Source of the DNA: Octopus vulgaris
Taxonomy: Eukaryota
NCBI GenBank assembly: GCA_951406725.2
Contig: OX597823.1
Location: 66,340,001-66,404,000 of the forward strand
Length of the DNA: 64,000 bases
Direction: 5' to 3'
Under the pieces are notes generated by a model, which ran no database searches, was not told the origin of the DNA, and worked only from the letters and a program-made list of their open reading frames with translations. Positions 11,114 through 63,722 of this stretch are shown piece by piece. The translations under genes and the position numbers were made by a program. The stretch's first letter is position 1, and each line of letters opens with the position of its first letter.

Positions 11114-11875
11114 TGTATGTATGTATGTATGTTTGAGTGTGTATGTAGATATAGATATGTAAATATATAGGCAGACAGTGTGTATCTATGAATACATGTA
11201 TGTTTATAGAGACAGTCTGTGTATGATACAGAGATAGCAAGAGGGAGAGAGAGAGAGAACAACGTCTTCTGCAAATACCACCTGGAATCTGAAACAATAT
11301 GTTCGTTTCGGTTCTATAATAATCCAATTATTGAAATAATTGCCTACCTCCCTTGCTGCATGGTAGAAAGATAATTATTTGATTAGGGGAGTAGAGCCAT
11401 CCCATTCCGTCATCCGGAATGGGACTTATATATATATGTGCGTGCGTGCGTGTGTGTGTGTGTATGTATGTGCATGTATTTATATGTATTATTTATTACG
11501 AGTGGTTAGCATGCATAAATAAAAGTCATATACACATACATACACATAGACACATGAGGCGACACATATTTATACATAACAGACGCACGTACATAGTCAC
11601 ACAAATCCATACACATAGACGTACTCAAACATGCACACACAAGGAGACAGACAAACACACAAATACACGCACACACATACACATACGCAAGCATGAACAC
11701 ACACACATTAATTTGCAGAATGCATACCTACTTAAAAAGGTACACACATGCATACATATATATACATATGCATACACAGATACATACATGCATACATATG
11801 TGTATACACGTGTAGACTGAAGTACATTCATGCGCATGCACAAACAAAAAGAACGCAGCTCTGATAACGGACAAG

Positions 11876-12059
11876 GTCAACGACTATTGAAAATGTTGCA
11901 AGACGCAAAGAAACTTTTAGAATAAGAAGTAATTGAATGGAAATCGAACTGGTGTTAAATAATAAGGCACTAAAAGAGAATTACTCTCCTCAGATATAAT
12001 AAGATATGATTCAACACACGAATTCACGTAAATAATCTTGCAAACCAAACACAAAAATG

Positions 12060-14095: not shown

Positions 14096-14337
14096 GATAT
14101 TCTTACCAACCATACTATCGCCTGTTAAAGATTAGGTATATTTGACAATAATATCAATAATGTCAGTCATTATGTTACGCTACACCTCACCTGACAATAC
14201 AATGAAACAATGAGACAACAATGCATAAGCGACTATGCTGCAAGACACATTTGACGCGTCCAAAGTTTTTTATAAAATGTGTTGCAATACGTGTGTGTGT
14301 GTTTGTTAAATGAAATGAGATAACGAAGCCGAAGTTA

Positions 14338-14549
14338 TTCTCTTTTACTCTTTTACTTGTTTCAGTCATTTGACTGCGGCCATGCTGGAGCACCGCCTTT
14401 AGTCGAGCAAATCGACCCCGGGACTTATTCTTTTGTAAGCCCAGTACTTATTCTATCGGTCTCTTTTGCCGAACCGCTAAGTAGCGGGGACATAAACACA
14501 CCAGCATCGGTTGTCAAGCAATGCTAGAGGGACAAACACAGACACACAA

Positions 14550-14580
<31 letters not shown>

Positions 14581-14752
14581 CATATATACGACAGGCTTCT
14601 TTCAGTTTCCGTCCACCAAATCCACTCACGAGGCTTTGGTCGGCCTGAGGCTATAGTAGAAGACACTTGCTTAAGGTGCCACGCAGTGGGACTGAATCCG
14701 GAACCATGTGGTTGGTAAATAAGCTACTTACCACACAGCCACTCTTGCGCCT
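14338..14752 (-). mobile_element. tRNA-derived SINE family A, full length
   Basis: Minus-strand head aggcgcaagagtggctgtgtggtaagtagc...gattcagtccc (A/B boxes), internal (TA)/(TG) microsatellite, and (gagtaaaa)n tail. Near-identical to other copies in the window. Confidence 0.9.
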
Positions 14753-21661: not shown

Positions 21662-22020
21662 TTTACTCTTTTACTTGTCTTAGTCATTTGACTGCGGCCA
21701 TGCTGGAGCACCGCCTTTAATCGAGCAACTCGACCCTGGGACTTATTCTTTTTGTAAGCCCAGTACTTATTCTTCGGTCTCTTTTGCCGAACCGCTAAGT
21801 AACGGGGACATAAACACACCAGTATCGGTTGTCAAGCAATGCTAGAGGGCAAACACAGACACACAAACACACACATATATACATATATACGACGGGCTTC
21901 TTTCAGTTTCCGTCAACCAAATCCACTCACAAGGCTTTGGTCGGCCCGAGGCTATAGTAGAAGACACTTAACACGCAGTTAACTGAACCCGGAACCATGT
22001 GGTTGGTAAACAAGCTACTT
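21662..22020 (-). mobile_element. SINE family A lacking the first ~25 nt of its head
   Basis: High identity to 14338-14752. It stops abruptly at the junction with the ORF1-only element. Confidence 0.9.
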
Positions 22021-23835
22021 TATTTCATAAATTTGTCATGTAGACAGTACAAAGAGCTTTGCGGGCTGGACAAATACATTAATGAATGAAAATGAATTAT
22101 AATGAATAAATGAGAGACGAAACCCAACACCCGCCGATTGGATTTTTCTTGAAAACATATTTTCTTTTTTGTTTTTTAAACAATCAATATATGGTTTCGA
22201 ACCTTTTACAAGGAGGAGGCACTAAAACCTCTTACTTAACATATTTTCTTTTTTCTTTCTTAAAACACAAAATTGAGGTTATAAACCACTACAAAATAGT
22301 CCAATAAGGTGAGGTTTCAAACTCTGTAACGAGGTTCTTTCACCTCCTACTCTTCGATATATCCATCGATATATTCATCATTATCTTCAATACCGCTTGA
22401 GTTCCTGTATCCCTCCATTTCCCATGCCTCACTCATGTAGGACATGTAAGTCGTGTAAGGGCCACCCGGCCATATGCGACACTCCTCCCCAAATCCTTTA
22501 AGCCTTTCCCACAAGGGAAACCTTATGACCTCCACAGCTATCTGCGGAGGCCATTCGGGATCCCGTGTGAAGGGCATATCTACTGTTTCTTTATGTTCTT
22601 CTACTATTTTTCCACCTCCCCGCCCTTGTAGAAAAAGATAGTTAATTGATCATCTTTAAGGGTGGGGGTGGTTTCTTCCACCGTGGGTGGCACAACTTCG
22701 GGATATGCAGTCGGCACATCATCTCCCTGCTGAGATGACCCGTTCTTCTTTCTTTTTTTCCTTTTCTTCCTGGCTTCGGGAGAGTGGAGCTCTTCCGTTT
22801 TGTCCGGAGACTCTCCCCCGCCTCCCGAAGCCTTAGGTTCCTTCGGCGGGCAACTATTGTTGCCCGCCTTCTTCCTTTTTAATCCTTTTTTGAGTTGAGG
22901 AGGCTGAAGCCTCTTCGACCACATCCACCTCTCCCTTTGACCGGGTAGGGGAGGTGGCATCTGGTGACTGTTCCAGGACCATACCATGGTCCTGGGGGCA
23001 GTTCCTTTTAATGTGGCCTGGCTGCAGGTACGAGTGACACTTTGGGGGACGTCCCTGAAGTATCACCGGATAACTGCAGCCAGCCATTTTCAAGAAATCT
23101 GGAAAAACCAGTTCTGTTGCGGCCGATGGGGTCCACAGGGTCAAAATCGCTTTTGACCCTTCCCAATCGACCGCCGGCAATACTCTTACATTTAAGAGCC
23201 TGGGCCCGCCATCTCCCAGTCCCCGTCGGATGGTATCTTCAATCCAATCCGCTTCGGTGCCCGGGGGGAGCCCACATATCTAGGCTCGTATTAATTTTCT
23301 TCCACAATATGACGGGAGAAACAGGATTTCCTTGCCTTCTAAAGGCCCACTCGCAAACTGGCGAGCCTTTTCCCCGTTGTCAAACAGCAACCATACGGTT
23401 GCATGTTTGACACCACGGGATATATATTTTACAGAGGACAAATGTTCTTTAAGTTCATTTTTTATGACTTGTTTTGGGAAGGCGGTGATGGAATTAAGAA
23501 CTTTAGAATATGTTCTAAATACCAACGTCTTCTCTTCCATATCTTTTAACCATTGCTTAGGCGGGTTAATTTCCCACTCTAAGACAGAGTTTTTCTTTTT
23601 AAGTTCCTTCTCTGCCATGTCAAAAACAGTTCAAGAGTAGTTCAAAAGACAGTCTGCCAAAAAATTAAACCGAATAAAAATAAAACAATATAAAGGGGAG
23701 GGGAGGAAACTGAAATTAAAGTAATGAAAAGAATGAACCAAAATTTTTTAGAAAGAAAGAAATAATAGAAGGGAAAAGTAAGTGAAAAATCTCACAAGTA
23801 GCACAGACAGGGAATCCTTTGTATAATACTCCAAA
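22019..23835 (-). mobile_element. ORF1-only (gag-like, CCHC zinc knuckle) L1/Tx1-type retroelement, frameshifted
   Basis: Overlapping ORF pieces 23618-23280, 23180-22854, 22987-22604 and 22577-22347. They contain VILQGRPPKCHSYLQPGHIKRNCP (CX2[C>Y]X4HX4C) and a basic KKRKKRKK tract. The putative 3' UTR ends in AATAAA at ~22019-22024. No ORF2 (EN/RT) follows. Confidence 0.7.
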
Positions 23836-28837: not shown

Positions 28838-29264
28838 AGGCGCAGCATTGTCGTGTGGTAAGTAGCTTGTTTCCAAACCACATAGTCCAGGGTTCAGTCT
28901 AACTGCGTGCTACTTTGGGCAAGTGTCTTCTACAATATCCCCGGGCCGACTAAAGCCTTGAGAGTGTAATTGGTAGACGAAAACTGAAAGAAACCCGTCG
29001 TATATATGTATATACATATTTTTATCTAATTATTGGTGTGTCTTTGTGTCTGTATTTGTCAACCCACCATCACTTGACAACCGATGGTGGTGTGTTTATG
29101 TCTCCGTAATTTAGCAGTTCGGCAAATTAGACCGATAGAATAAGTACTAGTCTCGCAAAGAATAAATCTTCGGATCGATTTCTTAGACTGAAACATTTTA
29201 AGATAGTGCTCCAGCATGGCCACAGTCAAATGACTGAAAGAAGTAAAAGAACAAAAGAGTAAAA
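28838..29264 (+). mobile_element. SINE family A, full length, diverged
   Basis: aggcgcagcattgtcgtgtggtaagtagc...gggttcagtc...ttgggcaagtgtcttc...aagtaaaaga tail. Confidence 0.9.
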
Positions 29265-29461
29265 CTGTATAAAGATTTGTCAAAACTCAACCAACCTAGT
29301 AAAGGAAAATAATATAGATGACGTCATTGAATTTGTTCCACAGTTAATACTGTCTACTTCACATAAAGTAATAAAAAATGACAAGTCAAAAAGTTGAAGA
29401 CGTATGAATATAAAATGTTACAAATGCTTTTTGGGATTGCAGCTGTAATGCTACATATACT

Positions 29462-29691
29462 CTTACTCTCTCTTTTACTCTTTTACTTGTTTCAGTCATT
29501 TTGACTGCGGCTATGCTGGAGCACCGCCTTTAGTCTAGCAAATCGATTCCAGGACTTATTCTTTGTAAGCCTACTACTTATTCTATCGGTCTCTTTTGCC
29601 GAACCGCTAAGTTACGGGGGTAGTAAACACTCCAGCATCGGTTGTCAAGCGATGTTGGGGACACACGCACAAACAAACATACACACACACA

Positions 29692-29742
<51 letters not shown>

Positions 29743-29878
29743 CTTAACTATCCTCTCACACCGTCTCCGATGAAGGGATATAATTAATAAATAGCCTAGA
29801 AACAACTGTAAGACCTTCTATCTATAAATGGTCTAATATCTACACAGCCTTGCTTTTTATCTTATTACGCAAAAAAAC

Positions 29879-29916
<38 letters not shown>

Positions 29917-30083
29917 GTACGACGGGCTTCTTTCAGTTTCCGTCTGCCAAATCCACTCACAAGGCTTTGGTCGGACCGAGGCTATAGTAGGATACACTTG
30001 CCCAAGGTGCCACACAGTGACACTGAACCCGGATCCATGTGGTTGGTAAGCAAGCTACTTACCACACAGCCACACCTGCGCCT
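29462..30083 (-). mobile_element. SINE family A, split by an insertion into its internal (TA)n
   Basis: The 3' half is at 29462-29695 and the 5' half at 29918-30083, with foreign sequence at 29741-29880 between (TA)n tracts. Confidence 0.9.
29763..29814 (+). ncRNA. Hammerhead ribozyme motif, sub-family 1, with a core substitution (CCGAUGA)
   Basis: GUCU-CCGAUGA-agggauau...auagccua-GAAA-caacug-UA-AGAC. The flanks are homologous to the 14788-14835 copy (ctcaca.cgtct upstream, ctataaatg downstream). Confidence 0.65.
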
Positions 30084-42384: not shown

Positions 42385-43275
42385 CGAATACTAAATAATA
42401 TAAACCCTAACATTCAATTTACAATGGAATATGGCAAAGAACAACTATATTATGATAAAATAATATGATGAAATATCCTCTTTAATTTAGCAAAAACACT
42501 TGCACAATATGTCTGATGGAAATACTCGGGACTTTTATCTTCAGAATACACAACAGCTCTAACTGAAAGACAATATCCATCCTCAGTTATAGAAGATGGG
42601 GTTAAGCGTGCTTAGAAATTCAGTATTACAACACTAAATTTAACAAAATGTAACACCACACATCCATCTCAAAACAATACCGTATATATCAACCTACAAC
42701 CCTAGAAACAATGAGGCATATAACACTATTGTACAAAATCTGCCTTTGCTCACTAGAGACCCAAAAATGAACAACATTCTTAAAACACATAAATTCATCA
42801 AATGCAAAACGCCACACAAATCGTTGGAAAGACTTCTGACAAATGCAAAGCTTTACACAACCACGAAACCAACGGTTAAAAAATGTGGACGCCCAAAATG
42901 TGAAACTTGCCCCAACCTACTGGAAGACTCGGAGTTCTTATTCAAACAAGGAGAGAGGTTTACAATTAAAATCAGCTTCGTTTGTGCTTCCGAGAATATA
43001 ATTTGTTATAACTAGTTCAGTTAATATGTAGGACAGACAAGTATGATACTGAGATACTGAGACGGAGAACCACAATAGATAAGGAACAGTTTCGGGTCCC
43101 GCAATACAGACTGATTCATTTGAGTGAACACGTAGAGAGATGTGCAGGTAATATCCAACTAAATTTCAGTTTTTGCCAAATAACAGTGCAAAGAAACAAT
43201 TTCTGTACAAAAGCAGCTAAATAAAGAAAATCTGTTCATAGAAAATACACATGTCTAAATATGAACGTATGACCT
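42385..43275 (+). mobile_element. Penelope-like element (Neptune-type) remnant: RT thumb, Cys linker and GIY-YIG endonuclease
   Basis: LNNINPNIQFTMEYGKEQL, QYPSSVIEDGVKRA, TYNPRNNE, KKCGRPKCETCP, FVCASENII, YVGQTS, LSEHVERC. It ends next to (TA)n. Confidence 0.85.
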
Positions 43276-43375
43276 CAGTATATTTTATATATATATATTT
43301 ATATATATATATATATATATACCCTTTGCATTACAACTCACCACGTGGAGATAATCTCATCGTCTCTCTTTGTTA

Positions 43376-45247: not shown

Positions 45248-46627
45248 AATATTAAGTCAGACTCTTAAAATATATTCTGATATTACATATTGCTGCGTTC
45301 CAATTCCTTTTTATTTCTGATTTTGTCTAAGTAATGAGCAACTTTGATCAAAAGGAAGCGTAACAAAATACACTGCATAGAGGTCAGTCTGGCTGTTTTA
45401 GGGACTCTTAGATTGTCATTATCTAATGTTTCATATTTTAAACAAGACAGCATATAATTCGACGGATATATGGATGCTATTTCTGGAAATTTTAGTGACT
45501 GTATTTTGGTTCACTCGTTGATACATCAGTTTACATTTTATTGCTGTATGGTGAAATACAATAAGACACAGTAGCATAGCTTAAATTGATTTATCATGTT
45601 ATGCTGCTTTCCTTTGAAATGTGTGTCTTTAAACCAAGAAAAGCAGACATTATTACATCCTGATAAAATATAGAAACGTGGCCGTACCAACTGTTCTGTG
45701 ATATTTTGAAAATTCTTTTACGTTATAATGATAATACTATTTATAGTTGCAAGTGAGTTCGCATTTTCTCGTGCTTATATCGATAATATAATTCCAGTAA
45801 GGTTCTTAGAATTGTTTAATCAAATACGTCCACCAAAATATATTTCCTATGTCAACGATACAAAATAAATATTCTCCATTTTGGTTGTCTATTTTCCTTT
45901 TTATATACATTTATACTTTCCTCATCTGCATTTCACTCTTCATCATCCTCATTTAAATGAAAGGTATCAGCATATAACACTTCAAGCCTATGATATCTTG
46001 TACACTACCTGCTCGCAAATCAGTTAAAAATTCTAAATTATTAAAATGTCCATACTAATATAATGTTATATAACAAAAGCACTGGTTTCTACTCGAAGCA
46101 CTCAAAATACATTAAACATTATTATCTGTTACTGTTAAGTATGTAACATAAACTGGGCATACGATTAAAGGCTGCTACACCAACGAAAGAGCCTACACAT
46201 AGACACTCGATCTGCCTGAAGTATAGCAACCATATCCTAAGTTACGTGCTAAGTTCTTTCAAACGGTATAGCCCATTAGACGGTGTTGTCCTAAAAATCC
46301 CTTAAGAAACAAGATTGGAAAACTGTGAATGCCTTTACTTATACATTAGTAACATTGCAGCTTTTTGGAAGAAGAATTCTGTCGATTCAATCTAGTCAAA
46401 TACATATCTATTATGTATTTATGAAGATTTCCTTAAGGAAAATGCAAACATGGCTACAATGAGATGCAAACAATGAAAATGGATTGGCCTCCATTGGCTG
46501 TGATACTCAAGTACAACTTATAATTCGACTACTTATAGATAGATATGTGTTTGTATCTGTGTATGTGTTTGTATCTGTGTATGTGTTCATACACACACAC
46601 ATACGCGCACACACACACACACACACA

Positions 46628-46666
<39 letters not shown>

Positions 46667-46669
<3 letters not shown>

Positions 46670-47213
46670 GCAATAAAGATTCAAGTTAATTTAAATGAAT
46701 TTACTTGAATATGGTACCTAACTTAGATGCACCAAAAAAAACTATACTGATTTAACAATACAGTAATGTGGGGTGATTATAAGCGAGAATGAAGCAACAA
46801 GAATGGATAGGTTTTTAGTACAATCGTTTCATACAGATATTATAATATGGATAAATTTGTCTTCTGTGAGTATGTAATCCCTCATCATATCTCTGGAAAT
46901 TCATATGTGCACTATGGATTAGGTCACCTTCTCTGTGATGCTATTAAGACTTTTTTTAAATTCTGTGATAAGACTGTACATCATCTTTAAAGAACTTTAA
47001 TGAACTTTTGAAATCTGTTTATGTTACTTAATTATCTACATTACTTCATGAGTATAGGCTCAACCACTAGGATGTCTAGAGAACTCACATGTATTTTAGC
47101 TGATGAGTACGGGACACGTTTATATGCTGTAATTTTTGCAACTTTTAATAAAACCTGTCCTTGTATGAAACGATTGTACTAAAAACCTATCCATTCTTGT
47201 TGCTTCATTCTCG

Positions 47214-47218
<5 letters not shown>
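46667..47218. mobile_element. Non-coding Penelope-type insertion with an inverted pseudo-LTR pair, inside (TA)n
   Basis: Perfect ~57-bp inverted repeat at ~46778-46835 and 47162-47218, with a hammerhead in the right arm. (TA)n lies on both sides. Confidence 0.75.
47094..47184 (+). ncRNA. Type-I hammerhead ribozyme motif, sub-family 2 (long stem II)
   Basis: UUUUAG-CUGAUGA-guacgggaca...uguccuuguau-GAAA-cgauug-UA-CUAAAA. Stem I is a perfect 6 bp, the core is intact, and the predicted cut is after GUA at 47178. Confidence 0.85.
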
Positions 47219-47251
<33 letters not shown>

Positions 47252-47455
47252 TCTATATTTCGTTTGGGGTTTTGGCTTGCTAGATTCTTTATGTGAGTTC
47301 GTGTGTTGAAGCATATTTTGTTGTGTCTGGGGAGAGTCATTCTCTTTTAGTGCCTTATAATTTAGCACAATCACCGGTAAAATTTCCTCTTATTTCTTTT
47401 TTATATTTTTCTAAAATTTTCGTTGCGTCTTGCAACCTTTTCAATAGTTTTGACG
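47252..47455 (-). repeat. Second copy of the unclassified ~190-bp repeat (see 11876-12062)
   Basis: Reverse-complement homology, also next to (TA)n at the same end. Confidence 0.75.
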
Positions 47456-47684
47456 TTATTTACACTGCGTTCCTTTTTGCTTGTGCGCATGTGTAGGCTA
47501 GTGTGTGTGTGTGTGCCTACACATTTATGTATGTATGTATGCATGTATGTATGCATGTGTGTGCGTGTGTGTATATGTATATATGTATGTGTGTATATTT
47601 TTATGTATGTATGTATGTTTCATATTCATGTTTGCGTGTCCGTGTTTGTGTGTTCTTGTGTATGTTTTTGCATGTGTGTGTGTT

Positions 47685-55705: not shown

Positions 55706-55772
55706 ACTAAAGCCTTGTGAGTGGATTTGGTAGACGGATACTGAAAGAAGCCCGTCATATATATGTATGTGC

Positions 55773-55815
<43 letters not shown>

Positions 55816-56030
55816 TGTGTCTGTGTTTGTCCCCCCAACATCACCTGACAACCGATGCTGGTGTGTTTACGTCGCCGTAAACTAGCGGTTCGGCAAAAGA
55901 GGGCGATAGAATAAGTACTAGGCTTACAAAGAATAAGTCCTGGGGTCGATTTCCTCGACTAAATGCGGTACTACAGCATGGCCACTGTCAAATGACTGAA
56001 ACAAGTAAAAGAGTAAAATAGTAAAGAGTA
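55706..56030 (+). mobile_element. 5'-truncated SINE family A
   Basis: aagccttgtgagtggatttggtagacgg...(TG)n...gactgaaacaagtaaaagagtaaaa. Confidence 0.9.
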
Positions 56031-63624: not shown

Positions 63625-63722
63625 AAACACTACAATCGTTTCATGGCTGTACAATTCGAATAACAATAATTTAAATTCAATTAATAATTCGAGTTATGGT
63701 TACAGTCAATCTTCAGGTTAAT
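63625..63722 (-). ncRNA. Hammerhead ribozyme motif, sub-family 2, in an AT-rich element next to (TA)n
   Basis: Minus strand: CUGAAGA-uugacugua...(long hairpin)...uacagccau-GAAA-cgauug-UA-guguu. The GAAACGAUUGUA segment is identical to the 47094 motif, but stem I is weak. Confidence 0.65.

Follow-up and report, generated by a model that had tools for sequence, protein, structure and literature searches.

A hammerhead motif with a long stem II in a probable truncated Penelope-like insertion of Octopus vulgaris, predicted to be closed and likely edited

The window, a 64-kb stretch of Octopus vulgaris DNA, is microsatellite-rich animal DNA with a GC content of 34%. It contains a 553-bp unit (46667-47219) made of two head-to-head pieces of one longer repeat, with (TA)n on either side. 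An earlier sequence-only reading had placed a unit of about 550 bp between two (TA)n tracts, and TRF bears this out: the left tract occupies 46631-46666 (TRF 46631-46665, 17.5 copies of AT) and the right tract 47216-47258 (21.5 copies of TA). The left tract is likely half of the target microsatellite, and the unit can be called TA-targeting as that reading had it, (TA)n being present at both flanks. As both flanks are (TA)n a target-site duplication is not readable. The end of the forward copy has TTATA microhomology with the (TA)n.

The right-hand piece is a forward, 5'-truncated copy (46847-47219, + strand), pLTR-like and non-coding, that ends at the first family end, here called end 1. The left-hand piece includes an inverted, 5'-truncated copy of 58 nt (46778-46835, − strand; estimated before as about 57 bp) that is 100% complementary to 47162-47219 and, as had been noticed, holds only the GAAA...GUA half of the hammerhead. 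The two copies are separated by 11 nt of junction filler (46836-46846); family contigs diverge before 46847, and a 12-bp palindrome (46837-46848) lies across the junction of this copy. Beyond the inverted copy is a tail of 111 nt (46667-46777, − strand; the earlier figure was about 110 nt). The tail is family sequence 3' of end 1, as record 25 of run X8 shows, and is present on the inverted copy only; an ATG scan of the element strand found none within it, and its summed depth in run X3 is near that of the ribozyme. The tail had been said to finish in a terminal hairpin. On the element strand there is a hairpin near the second family end, end 2 (46679-46710, − strand), and in that respect the description stands, but it is modest (z = −2.6 on the + strand and −2.2 on the − strand; equalled by 5/200 and 4/200 shuffles respectively) and it stops 12 nt inside the unit boundary. 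Frame scanning and six-frame translation gave no stop-free frame of 100 amino acids in the unit, and none of 150 PLE-type proteins matched it by tblastn, in agreement with the claim that it lacks coding sequence.

Other repeats lie in the window. A separate, older and very high-copy repeat (47250-47500) adjoins the unit, and has a second copy at 11838-12049 that is 77% alike. A SINE-like family occurs at 14333-14752, 21662-22020, 28838-30083 and 55706-56030 in both orientations, 73-95% alike. On the − strand, frames at 597-1061 and 1870-2595 resemble by eye the restriction-type endonuclease and reverse transcriptase (RT) of an R4/Dong-like LINE, with no match in Pfam, and Gag-like frames at 22854-23630 match a zinc knuckle weakly (PF00098, E = 0.024).

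The forward copy contains a type I hammerhead motif (47094-47184, + strand), identified by motif scan and examined by folding and shuffling. Stem I is formed by 6 bp between 47094-47099 and 47179-47184, the core sequences are CUGAUGA (47100-47106) and GAAA (47167-47170), and between them is a stem II domain of 60 nt (47107-47166) with a predicted stability of −11.3 kcal/mol. Stem III and its loop are the self-complementary CGAUUG (47171-47176), for which a self-duplex of −5.8 kcal/mol is predicted, and the triplet is GUA, with the cut predicted after A47178. The features of the type I class are present, i.e. CUGANGA, GAAA, an NUH triplet and three helices with helix I open. The motif had been called a complete hammerhead with a 6-bp stem I and a stem II of about 60 nt, and this is confirmed. 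It is the sole such motif in the 64-kb window, and 0/200 dinucleotide shuffles of the window gave a hammerhead, even under a looser rule with stem I of ≥5 and stem II of ≥4 bp. It sits in the sense strand, 35 nt from end 1 and 146 nt from end 2. The first pair of helix II (10.1-11.1) is G.U, formed by G47107 opposite U47166, instead of G-C; U/U is common at this position in the Hydra rows of PMC8557442 File S2. A 14-base match at 63631-63644 was rejected, having no core or stems around it.

The known hammerheads of PLEs (Cervera and de la Pena 2014, PMC4209133) are, in the parts of that paper that bear on this, similarly of type I, with a short palindromic helix III that suits dimers and a variable first pair of helix II. 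The length of stem II is different. The core halves are 60 nt apart in the unit, whereas loop II is 3-10 nt in the 26 Hydra rows of PMC8557442 File S2, and the longest of the 34 rows in that file, Selaginella PLE-X1, has about 53 nt. The octopus entry of the file, Hydra-1_Obim, differs in sequence from the unit. No hammerhead reached the gathering score of Rfam in the 64-kb window, and none of the 15 weak matches in 46600-47300 (E ≤ 10) was a hammerhead. It is likely that Rfam misses the motif because of the long stem II, which at 60 nt also escapes the 7-17 nt spacer given for one published PLE scan (PMC8557442). Since a long stem II is missed by both, counts of animal hammerheads may be low; for the giant squid, 235 Rfam hammerheads are given in the relevant parts of PMC11703226 / PMC6962438. 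Exact-pattern scans for the element gave 0 and 0 hits in metagenomes and 0 in prokaryote genomes. Viral loci with exact-pattern hits (1 and 11) were taken as chance, 0/12 having a hammerhead or a match of more than 18 bases.

We studied the wider family in contigs from four public runs, X1, X2, X3 and X8. Twenty of the 24 listed runs, from one organism and 8 studies, contain 63-77% of the sampled words of the unit. The statements that follow cover 40 of 88 variant rows, 15 of 73 joints and 32 contig pieces, with 42,332 further pieces beyond these. In X2 the summed depth of the unit ranges from 124 to 11,914 times that of the unique flank (8 bins), which is not a copy number but indicates a large family. 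The depth in X3 is 1.3 million at the ribozyme and drops to 0.15 million by the 5' boundary. Among the 21 unit rows listed, this copy departs from nearly all the depth only at 47058, 46957 and, in X3, 46948. The family is therefore young, and the suggestion of a recent insertion is upheld for a copy so close to the family majority over those rows. Ribozyme variants in X2 and X3 are confined to the long stem II among the rows listed: the A>G change at 47153 leaves a U.G pair in place, and 47134 falls within the terminal loop. Because the family is so young, these tell little about selection.

The contigs also reveal the order of the parent sequence. Record 25 of X8 reads 46958-47161 (+) and then directly 46835-46678 (−), passing from the forward body into the tail with no inversion. 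The parent must then have the order body, hammerhead, end 1, 111-nt tail, end 2. At 46778, nineteen contigs of X3 give way to (TA)n, so end 1 is family-wide; in this copy the right end is end 1 and the left end lies 111 nt beyond it. Other sequence continues upstream of 46847 in five contigs of X2 and in one of X8, in the latter for at least 255 letters, from which it follows that the forward copy is 5'-truncated. Both pieces of the unit thus derive from one colinear sequence that continues upstream of 46847.

This bears on the proposal that the unit is a dedicated non-autonomous cassette with a fixed inverted layout, amplified as a unit in MITE-like fashion. The whole of 46667-47219 is high-copy, non-coding and near-identical to the family majority, as such a cassette should be, and non-autonomous PLE derivatives are in print (parts of PMC8557442). 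Yet the contigs run on upstream of 46847 and one reads from body to tail uninverted. Moreover, among the joints listed there are two other fold-back joints, 46805->47172 (X2, depth 263) and 46821->47181 (X3, depth 146.6), that map to inversion points unlike that of this copy, while 0/32 of the listed contig pieces cross the junction found here. With other junctions in other copies the fixed cassette is left without support; we regard it as quite improbable, and this part of the sequence-only reading is not sustained.

The layout is that of a known kind of insertion. PLE insertions are described in parts of PMC3846280 and PMC8557442 as having an inverted 5'-truncated copy placed head-to-head, a tail on one end and junction palindromes. 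The unit shares with the EN+ PLE insertions of Arkhipova 2013 (PMC3846280) and Craig 2021 (PMC8557442) the inverted copy, the one-end tail, the palindrome and the 3' hammerhead. Here the inverted 5'-truncated copy is next to the 5' end, the tail is on one end only, and the hammerhead is in the sense strand of the pLTR near the 3' end. The (TA)n target is as stated there for the Hydra, Naiad and Neptune types (PMC8557442). Single dispersed hammerheads from truncated PLEs, including opposite-strand pairs 100-700 bp apart, are also on record (parts of PMC4209133). There are differences. The tail is 111 nt here against 30-40 nt in the published EN+ PLEs (from parts of PMC3846280 and PMC8557442), and the pLTR and tail of the unit have no ORF start and no linked ORF, whereas those of the anole and rotifer PLEs, as far as those descriptions go, overlap the ORF start. 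A close parallel comes from the PAc Poseidon element of Anolis (Frangieh 2024, PMC11167929, in part), which has two discrete 3' ends past a type I hammerhead and an AT-rich target, and whose ribozyme is likewise predicted to fold poorly alone. The PAc ribozyme overlaps the ORF start and the 3' ends of PAc lie inside the ORF, whereas the unit is non-coding and its stem II is much longer. In the same source, the tail of the PLE is defined by two internal RT starts and the ribozyme cuts only with protein. The 111-nt tail with its hairpin provides a second natural case on which that two-internal-start model of PLE reverse transcription can be tried.

The Penelope-like origin put forward from the sequence is thus well matched by the inverted pLTR with its tail, the two ends, the junction palindrome and the (TA)n. 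The insertion type, a truncated PLE end-module, is already known; what is new is modest, namely the long stem II, the long tail and the likely editing of the core. Overall, we think it probable that the unit is a truncated insertion, lacking any protein, that comes from the hammerhead-bearing 3' end of a young Penelope-like retrotransposon, with a ribozyme that is predicted to be shut and a family RNA that is likely A-to-I edited, including at A15.1. By analogy with the anole PLE, an RT/GIY-YIG protein would nick the (TA)n and begin reverse transcription from two internal sites corresponding to end 1 and end 2. Early termination, with fold-back or self-priming, would rebuild the inverted piece at each insertion, giving junctions that vary.

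An alternative is that the parent is a non-coding, retrozyme-like PLE derivative with a tandem or circular RNA template, mobilized in trans, and that the locus is a truncated monomer. The non-LTR retrozymes (PMC7229834; bioRxiv 10.64898/2026.07.22.740005, both in part) do resemble the unit in being non-coding, with a type I hammerhead, low GC and many dispersed copies, and animal retrozymes are said in the latter source to derive from PLE pLTRs. A tail with no ORF start, a non-coding body of at least 370 nt and a stem III compatible with a dimer all suit such a parent, as does the fact that several small runs (RNA by guess) contain 71-77% of the sampled words. However, the non-LTR retrozymes are tandem, as far as these sources describe them, whereas the locus has the inverted layout and tail of PLE insertions instead of a head-to-tail hammerhead array, with no tandem copy within the 64-kb window, and the long stem II contrasts with the 4-bp helix II of canonical animal hammerheads (parts of PMC4209133). 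We therefore consider a retrozyme-like parent unlikely. Such a parent is compatible with the proposed action of a PLE protein and with the fold-back, sequestration and editing steps.

Neither an autonomous partner nor a linked RT/GIY-YIG ORF was found in the 64-kb window, nor by the metagenome and prokaryote genome pattern scans (0). A decayed Penelope-like fragment (42472-43250, + strand) comprises the RT thumb, a Zn-finger linker and the GIY-YIG region. It has stops and frameshifts, ends just before (TA)n at 43286 and lies 3.4 kb from the unit. In a full HMMER scan it has 439 relatives, with RT plus GIY-YIG domains in 4 of 6 scanned, and among its named relatives the nearest is an Octopus bimaculoides protein (71%) mis-named 'myb-like protein D'; two word-index protein searches and Pfam gave nothing. 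Its CxxxxCxxC linker is, on our reading, presumably Neptune-like. The fragment shares no DNA with the unit and was therefore rejected as its direct parent. The octopus Naiads and Hydra-1_Obim, which share the preference for (TA)n targets, were also set aside as partners, giving no match by eye or motif; for Hydra-1_Obim the 3' end was compared through its File S2 row. PMC13282606, in the part that deals with them, counts 31 recently active PLE families in O. vulgaris, so its repeat library may already include this one.

It is very improbable that the element represents a Naiad 3' end, with long-stem-II hammerheads explaining the 'half core' motifs of cephalopod Naiads. In parts of PMC8557442 the octopus Naiads do target (TA)n, and its File S1 marks Naiad_Ovul and Naiad_Esco as HHR_half_core, the two halves being 35-50 nt apart. 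Yet a 12-base core motif of the element occurs 0 times in the 584,047-character supplement of that paper, where a line break could conceal an occurrence, and by eye the element is unlike the 3' ends of Naiad_Obim, Ovul, Omin, Esco and Adux. Cephalopod Naiads are, moreover, given there as long inactive, against the young family found here.

We return to the reading as a truncated insertion, and to the predicted state of its ribozyme, using folding figures that are model predictions with no tertiary contacts. In the bare 91-mer the predicted probability of stem I is 0.26-0.66. It is about 0.22 in 47085-47200, the fragment that had been suggested for a cleavage test and whose predicted fold is not stabler than shuffles (z = 0.45). 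The value is 0.006 in 47060-47219, 0.02 in the forward copy by itself and 0.0 for the whole unit, in which the arms form a duplex calculated at −96.5 kcal/mol. A local hairpin competing for CUGAUGA is predicted to beat the stem I fold by 4.6 kcal/mol. The ribozyme is thus predicted to be closed in this copy, even in the absence of the inverted arm. In a read-through RNA the 58-nt arms would pair and hide the GAAA, stem III and the cut site, and the local hairpin would compete for CUGAUGA, such that cleavage would require a dimer or the help of a protein. The idea that the inverted arm could sequester the ribozyme is supported by these models. The further idea that this is the best candidate for an active ribozyme does not fare so well: it is the sole hammerhead of the window, and the modelled stem I probabilities are 0.02 in the forward copy and 0.22 in the test fragment. 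A stem III of 1-2 bp and a G.U first pair of helix II would fit the weak, dimer- or protein-dependent PLE ribozymes that have been published.

The contigs of X1 carry changes of the kind left by RNA editing. X1 and X8 are RNA by guess only. The absence of any recorded RNA among the 24 runs was given no weight as evidence. X1, X2 and X3 are from different samples and studies, X1 having no matched DNA. Over a 1101-nt stretch that includes the neighboring repeat, A>G plus T>C account for 32/64 changed places in X1, against 9/49 in X2 (Fisher p = 0.0007) and 11/49 in X3 (p = 0.003). C>T and G>A show no such increase in X1 (13 places vs 20 and 19). We defined a row as X1-only if the change is at ≥10% in X1 and at <1% in both X2 and X3. 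Eight of the 21 listed unit rows are of this kind, all of editing type (6 A>G and 2 T>C). The base on the 5' side is U in 6/8 (background 32%, p = 0.016) and G in 0/8, in a test of neighbor bases that was picked after the sites were seen. The X1-only changes occur in as many as 22 different contigs. The sites affected include two in stem II (47147 and 47151), 47165 and the core A15.1 at 47170. The last two lie in the doubled arm, and are A>G on the ribozyme strand under either placement. At 47170 (+ strand) G replaces A15.1 in 85.8 of 187.3 summed depth in X1 (46%; 18 contigs), a contig depth and not an editing level, compared with 22.5 of 173,346 in X2 (0.013%) and 0 of 676,485 in X3. In this one run, RNA by guess, there is thus the excess of A>G with 5' U/A neighbors expected of ADAR.

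Not all the data point the same way. Position 46921 is A>G at 78% in X1, but since the change is also present in X2, at 22%, the position was not counted as X1-only; 19 listed rows of the neighboring repeat were likewise left out. X8 has no excess of A>G and T>C (6/21 places, with no depth at 47165 and 47170), and at a depth of 5.5 lacks the change at 47147 and 47151. These points, with the dependence on a single run of guessed library type and no matched DNA, would suit rare genomic copies or polymorphisms that dominate the X1 sample. We find that rather unlikely, given that there is no rise in C>T and G>A, that 8/8 X1-only changes are of editing type, and that they occur in up to 22 contigs and avoid a 5' G. 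On these sequence comparisons the X1 changes are quite probably real A-to-I editing. In the neighboring repeat, 47405 is A>G at 26% in X1 and at 0.4-0.5% in X2 and X3, so editing-like changes are not limited to the PLE.

A hammerhead with I15.1 opposite U16.1 would probably cut poorly. Engineered hammerheads are blocked by inosine at the cleavage triplet (part of PMC3923133), and I15.1 shifts the specificity from NUH to NCH (Ludwig 1998, cited in PMC8879150, in part), so that I15.1 opposite U16.1 would likely stop cleavage. Octopus is given as having the strongest hyper-editing, with self-folding repeats as prime targets and over 40,000 editing sites in a lizard Penelope, in sections of PMC5625713 (Porath 2017); those on hyper-edited repeats mention no hammerhead core positions. 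In a literature that covers few subscription papers, we found nothing on the editing of a genomic hammerhead core. ADAR would probably edit duplexes such as that formed by the arms, and I15.1 opposite U16.1 would disable the cut at GUA. The editing is most likely a by-product of double-stranded RNA rather than a selected switch, the simpler reading because editing needs a duplex that already closes the ribozyme. A stronger proposal is that fold-back copies make the family RNA double-stranded and that ADAR, by hitting core A15.1 and perhaps A17, switches off cleavage in many transcripts, either as a defense against the transposon or as a tunable switch of stability in host transcripts. We think this improbable. 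If true, it would be a natural ribozyme under the control of host RNA editing, with a long stem II missed by published descriptors. Editing of the core, if real, connects the question of PLE hammerhead function with the very high editing of cephalopods.

Two observations concern the Naiad sequences themselves (PMC8557442 File S5). By eye, both core boxes are present, at a distance of 30-40 nt, in the 'half core' 3' ends of Naiad_Ovul, Naiad_Obim and Naiad_Esco. In two Octopus Naiads the GAAA precedes CUGAUGA within a GC-rich stem, which by eye might be a permuted hammerhead-like fold.
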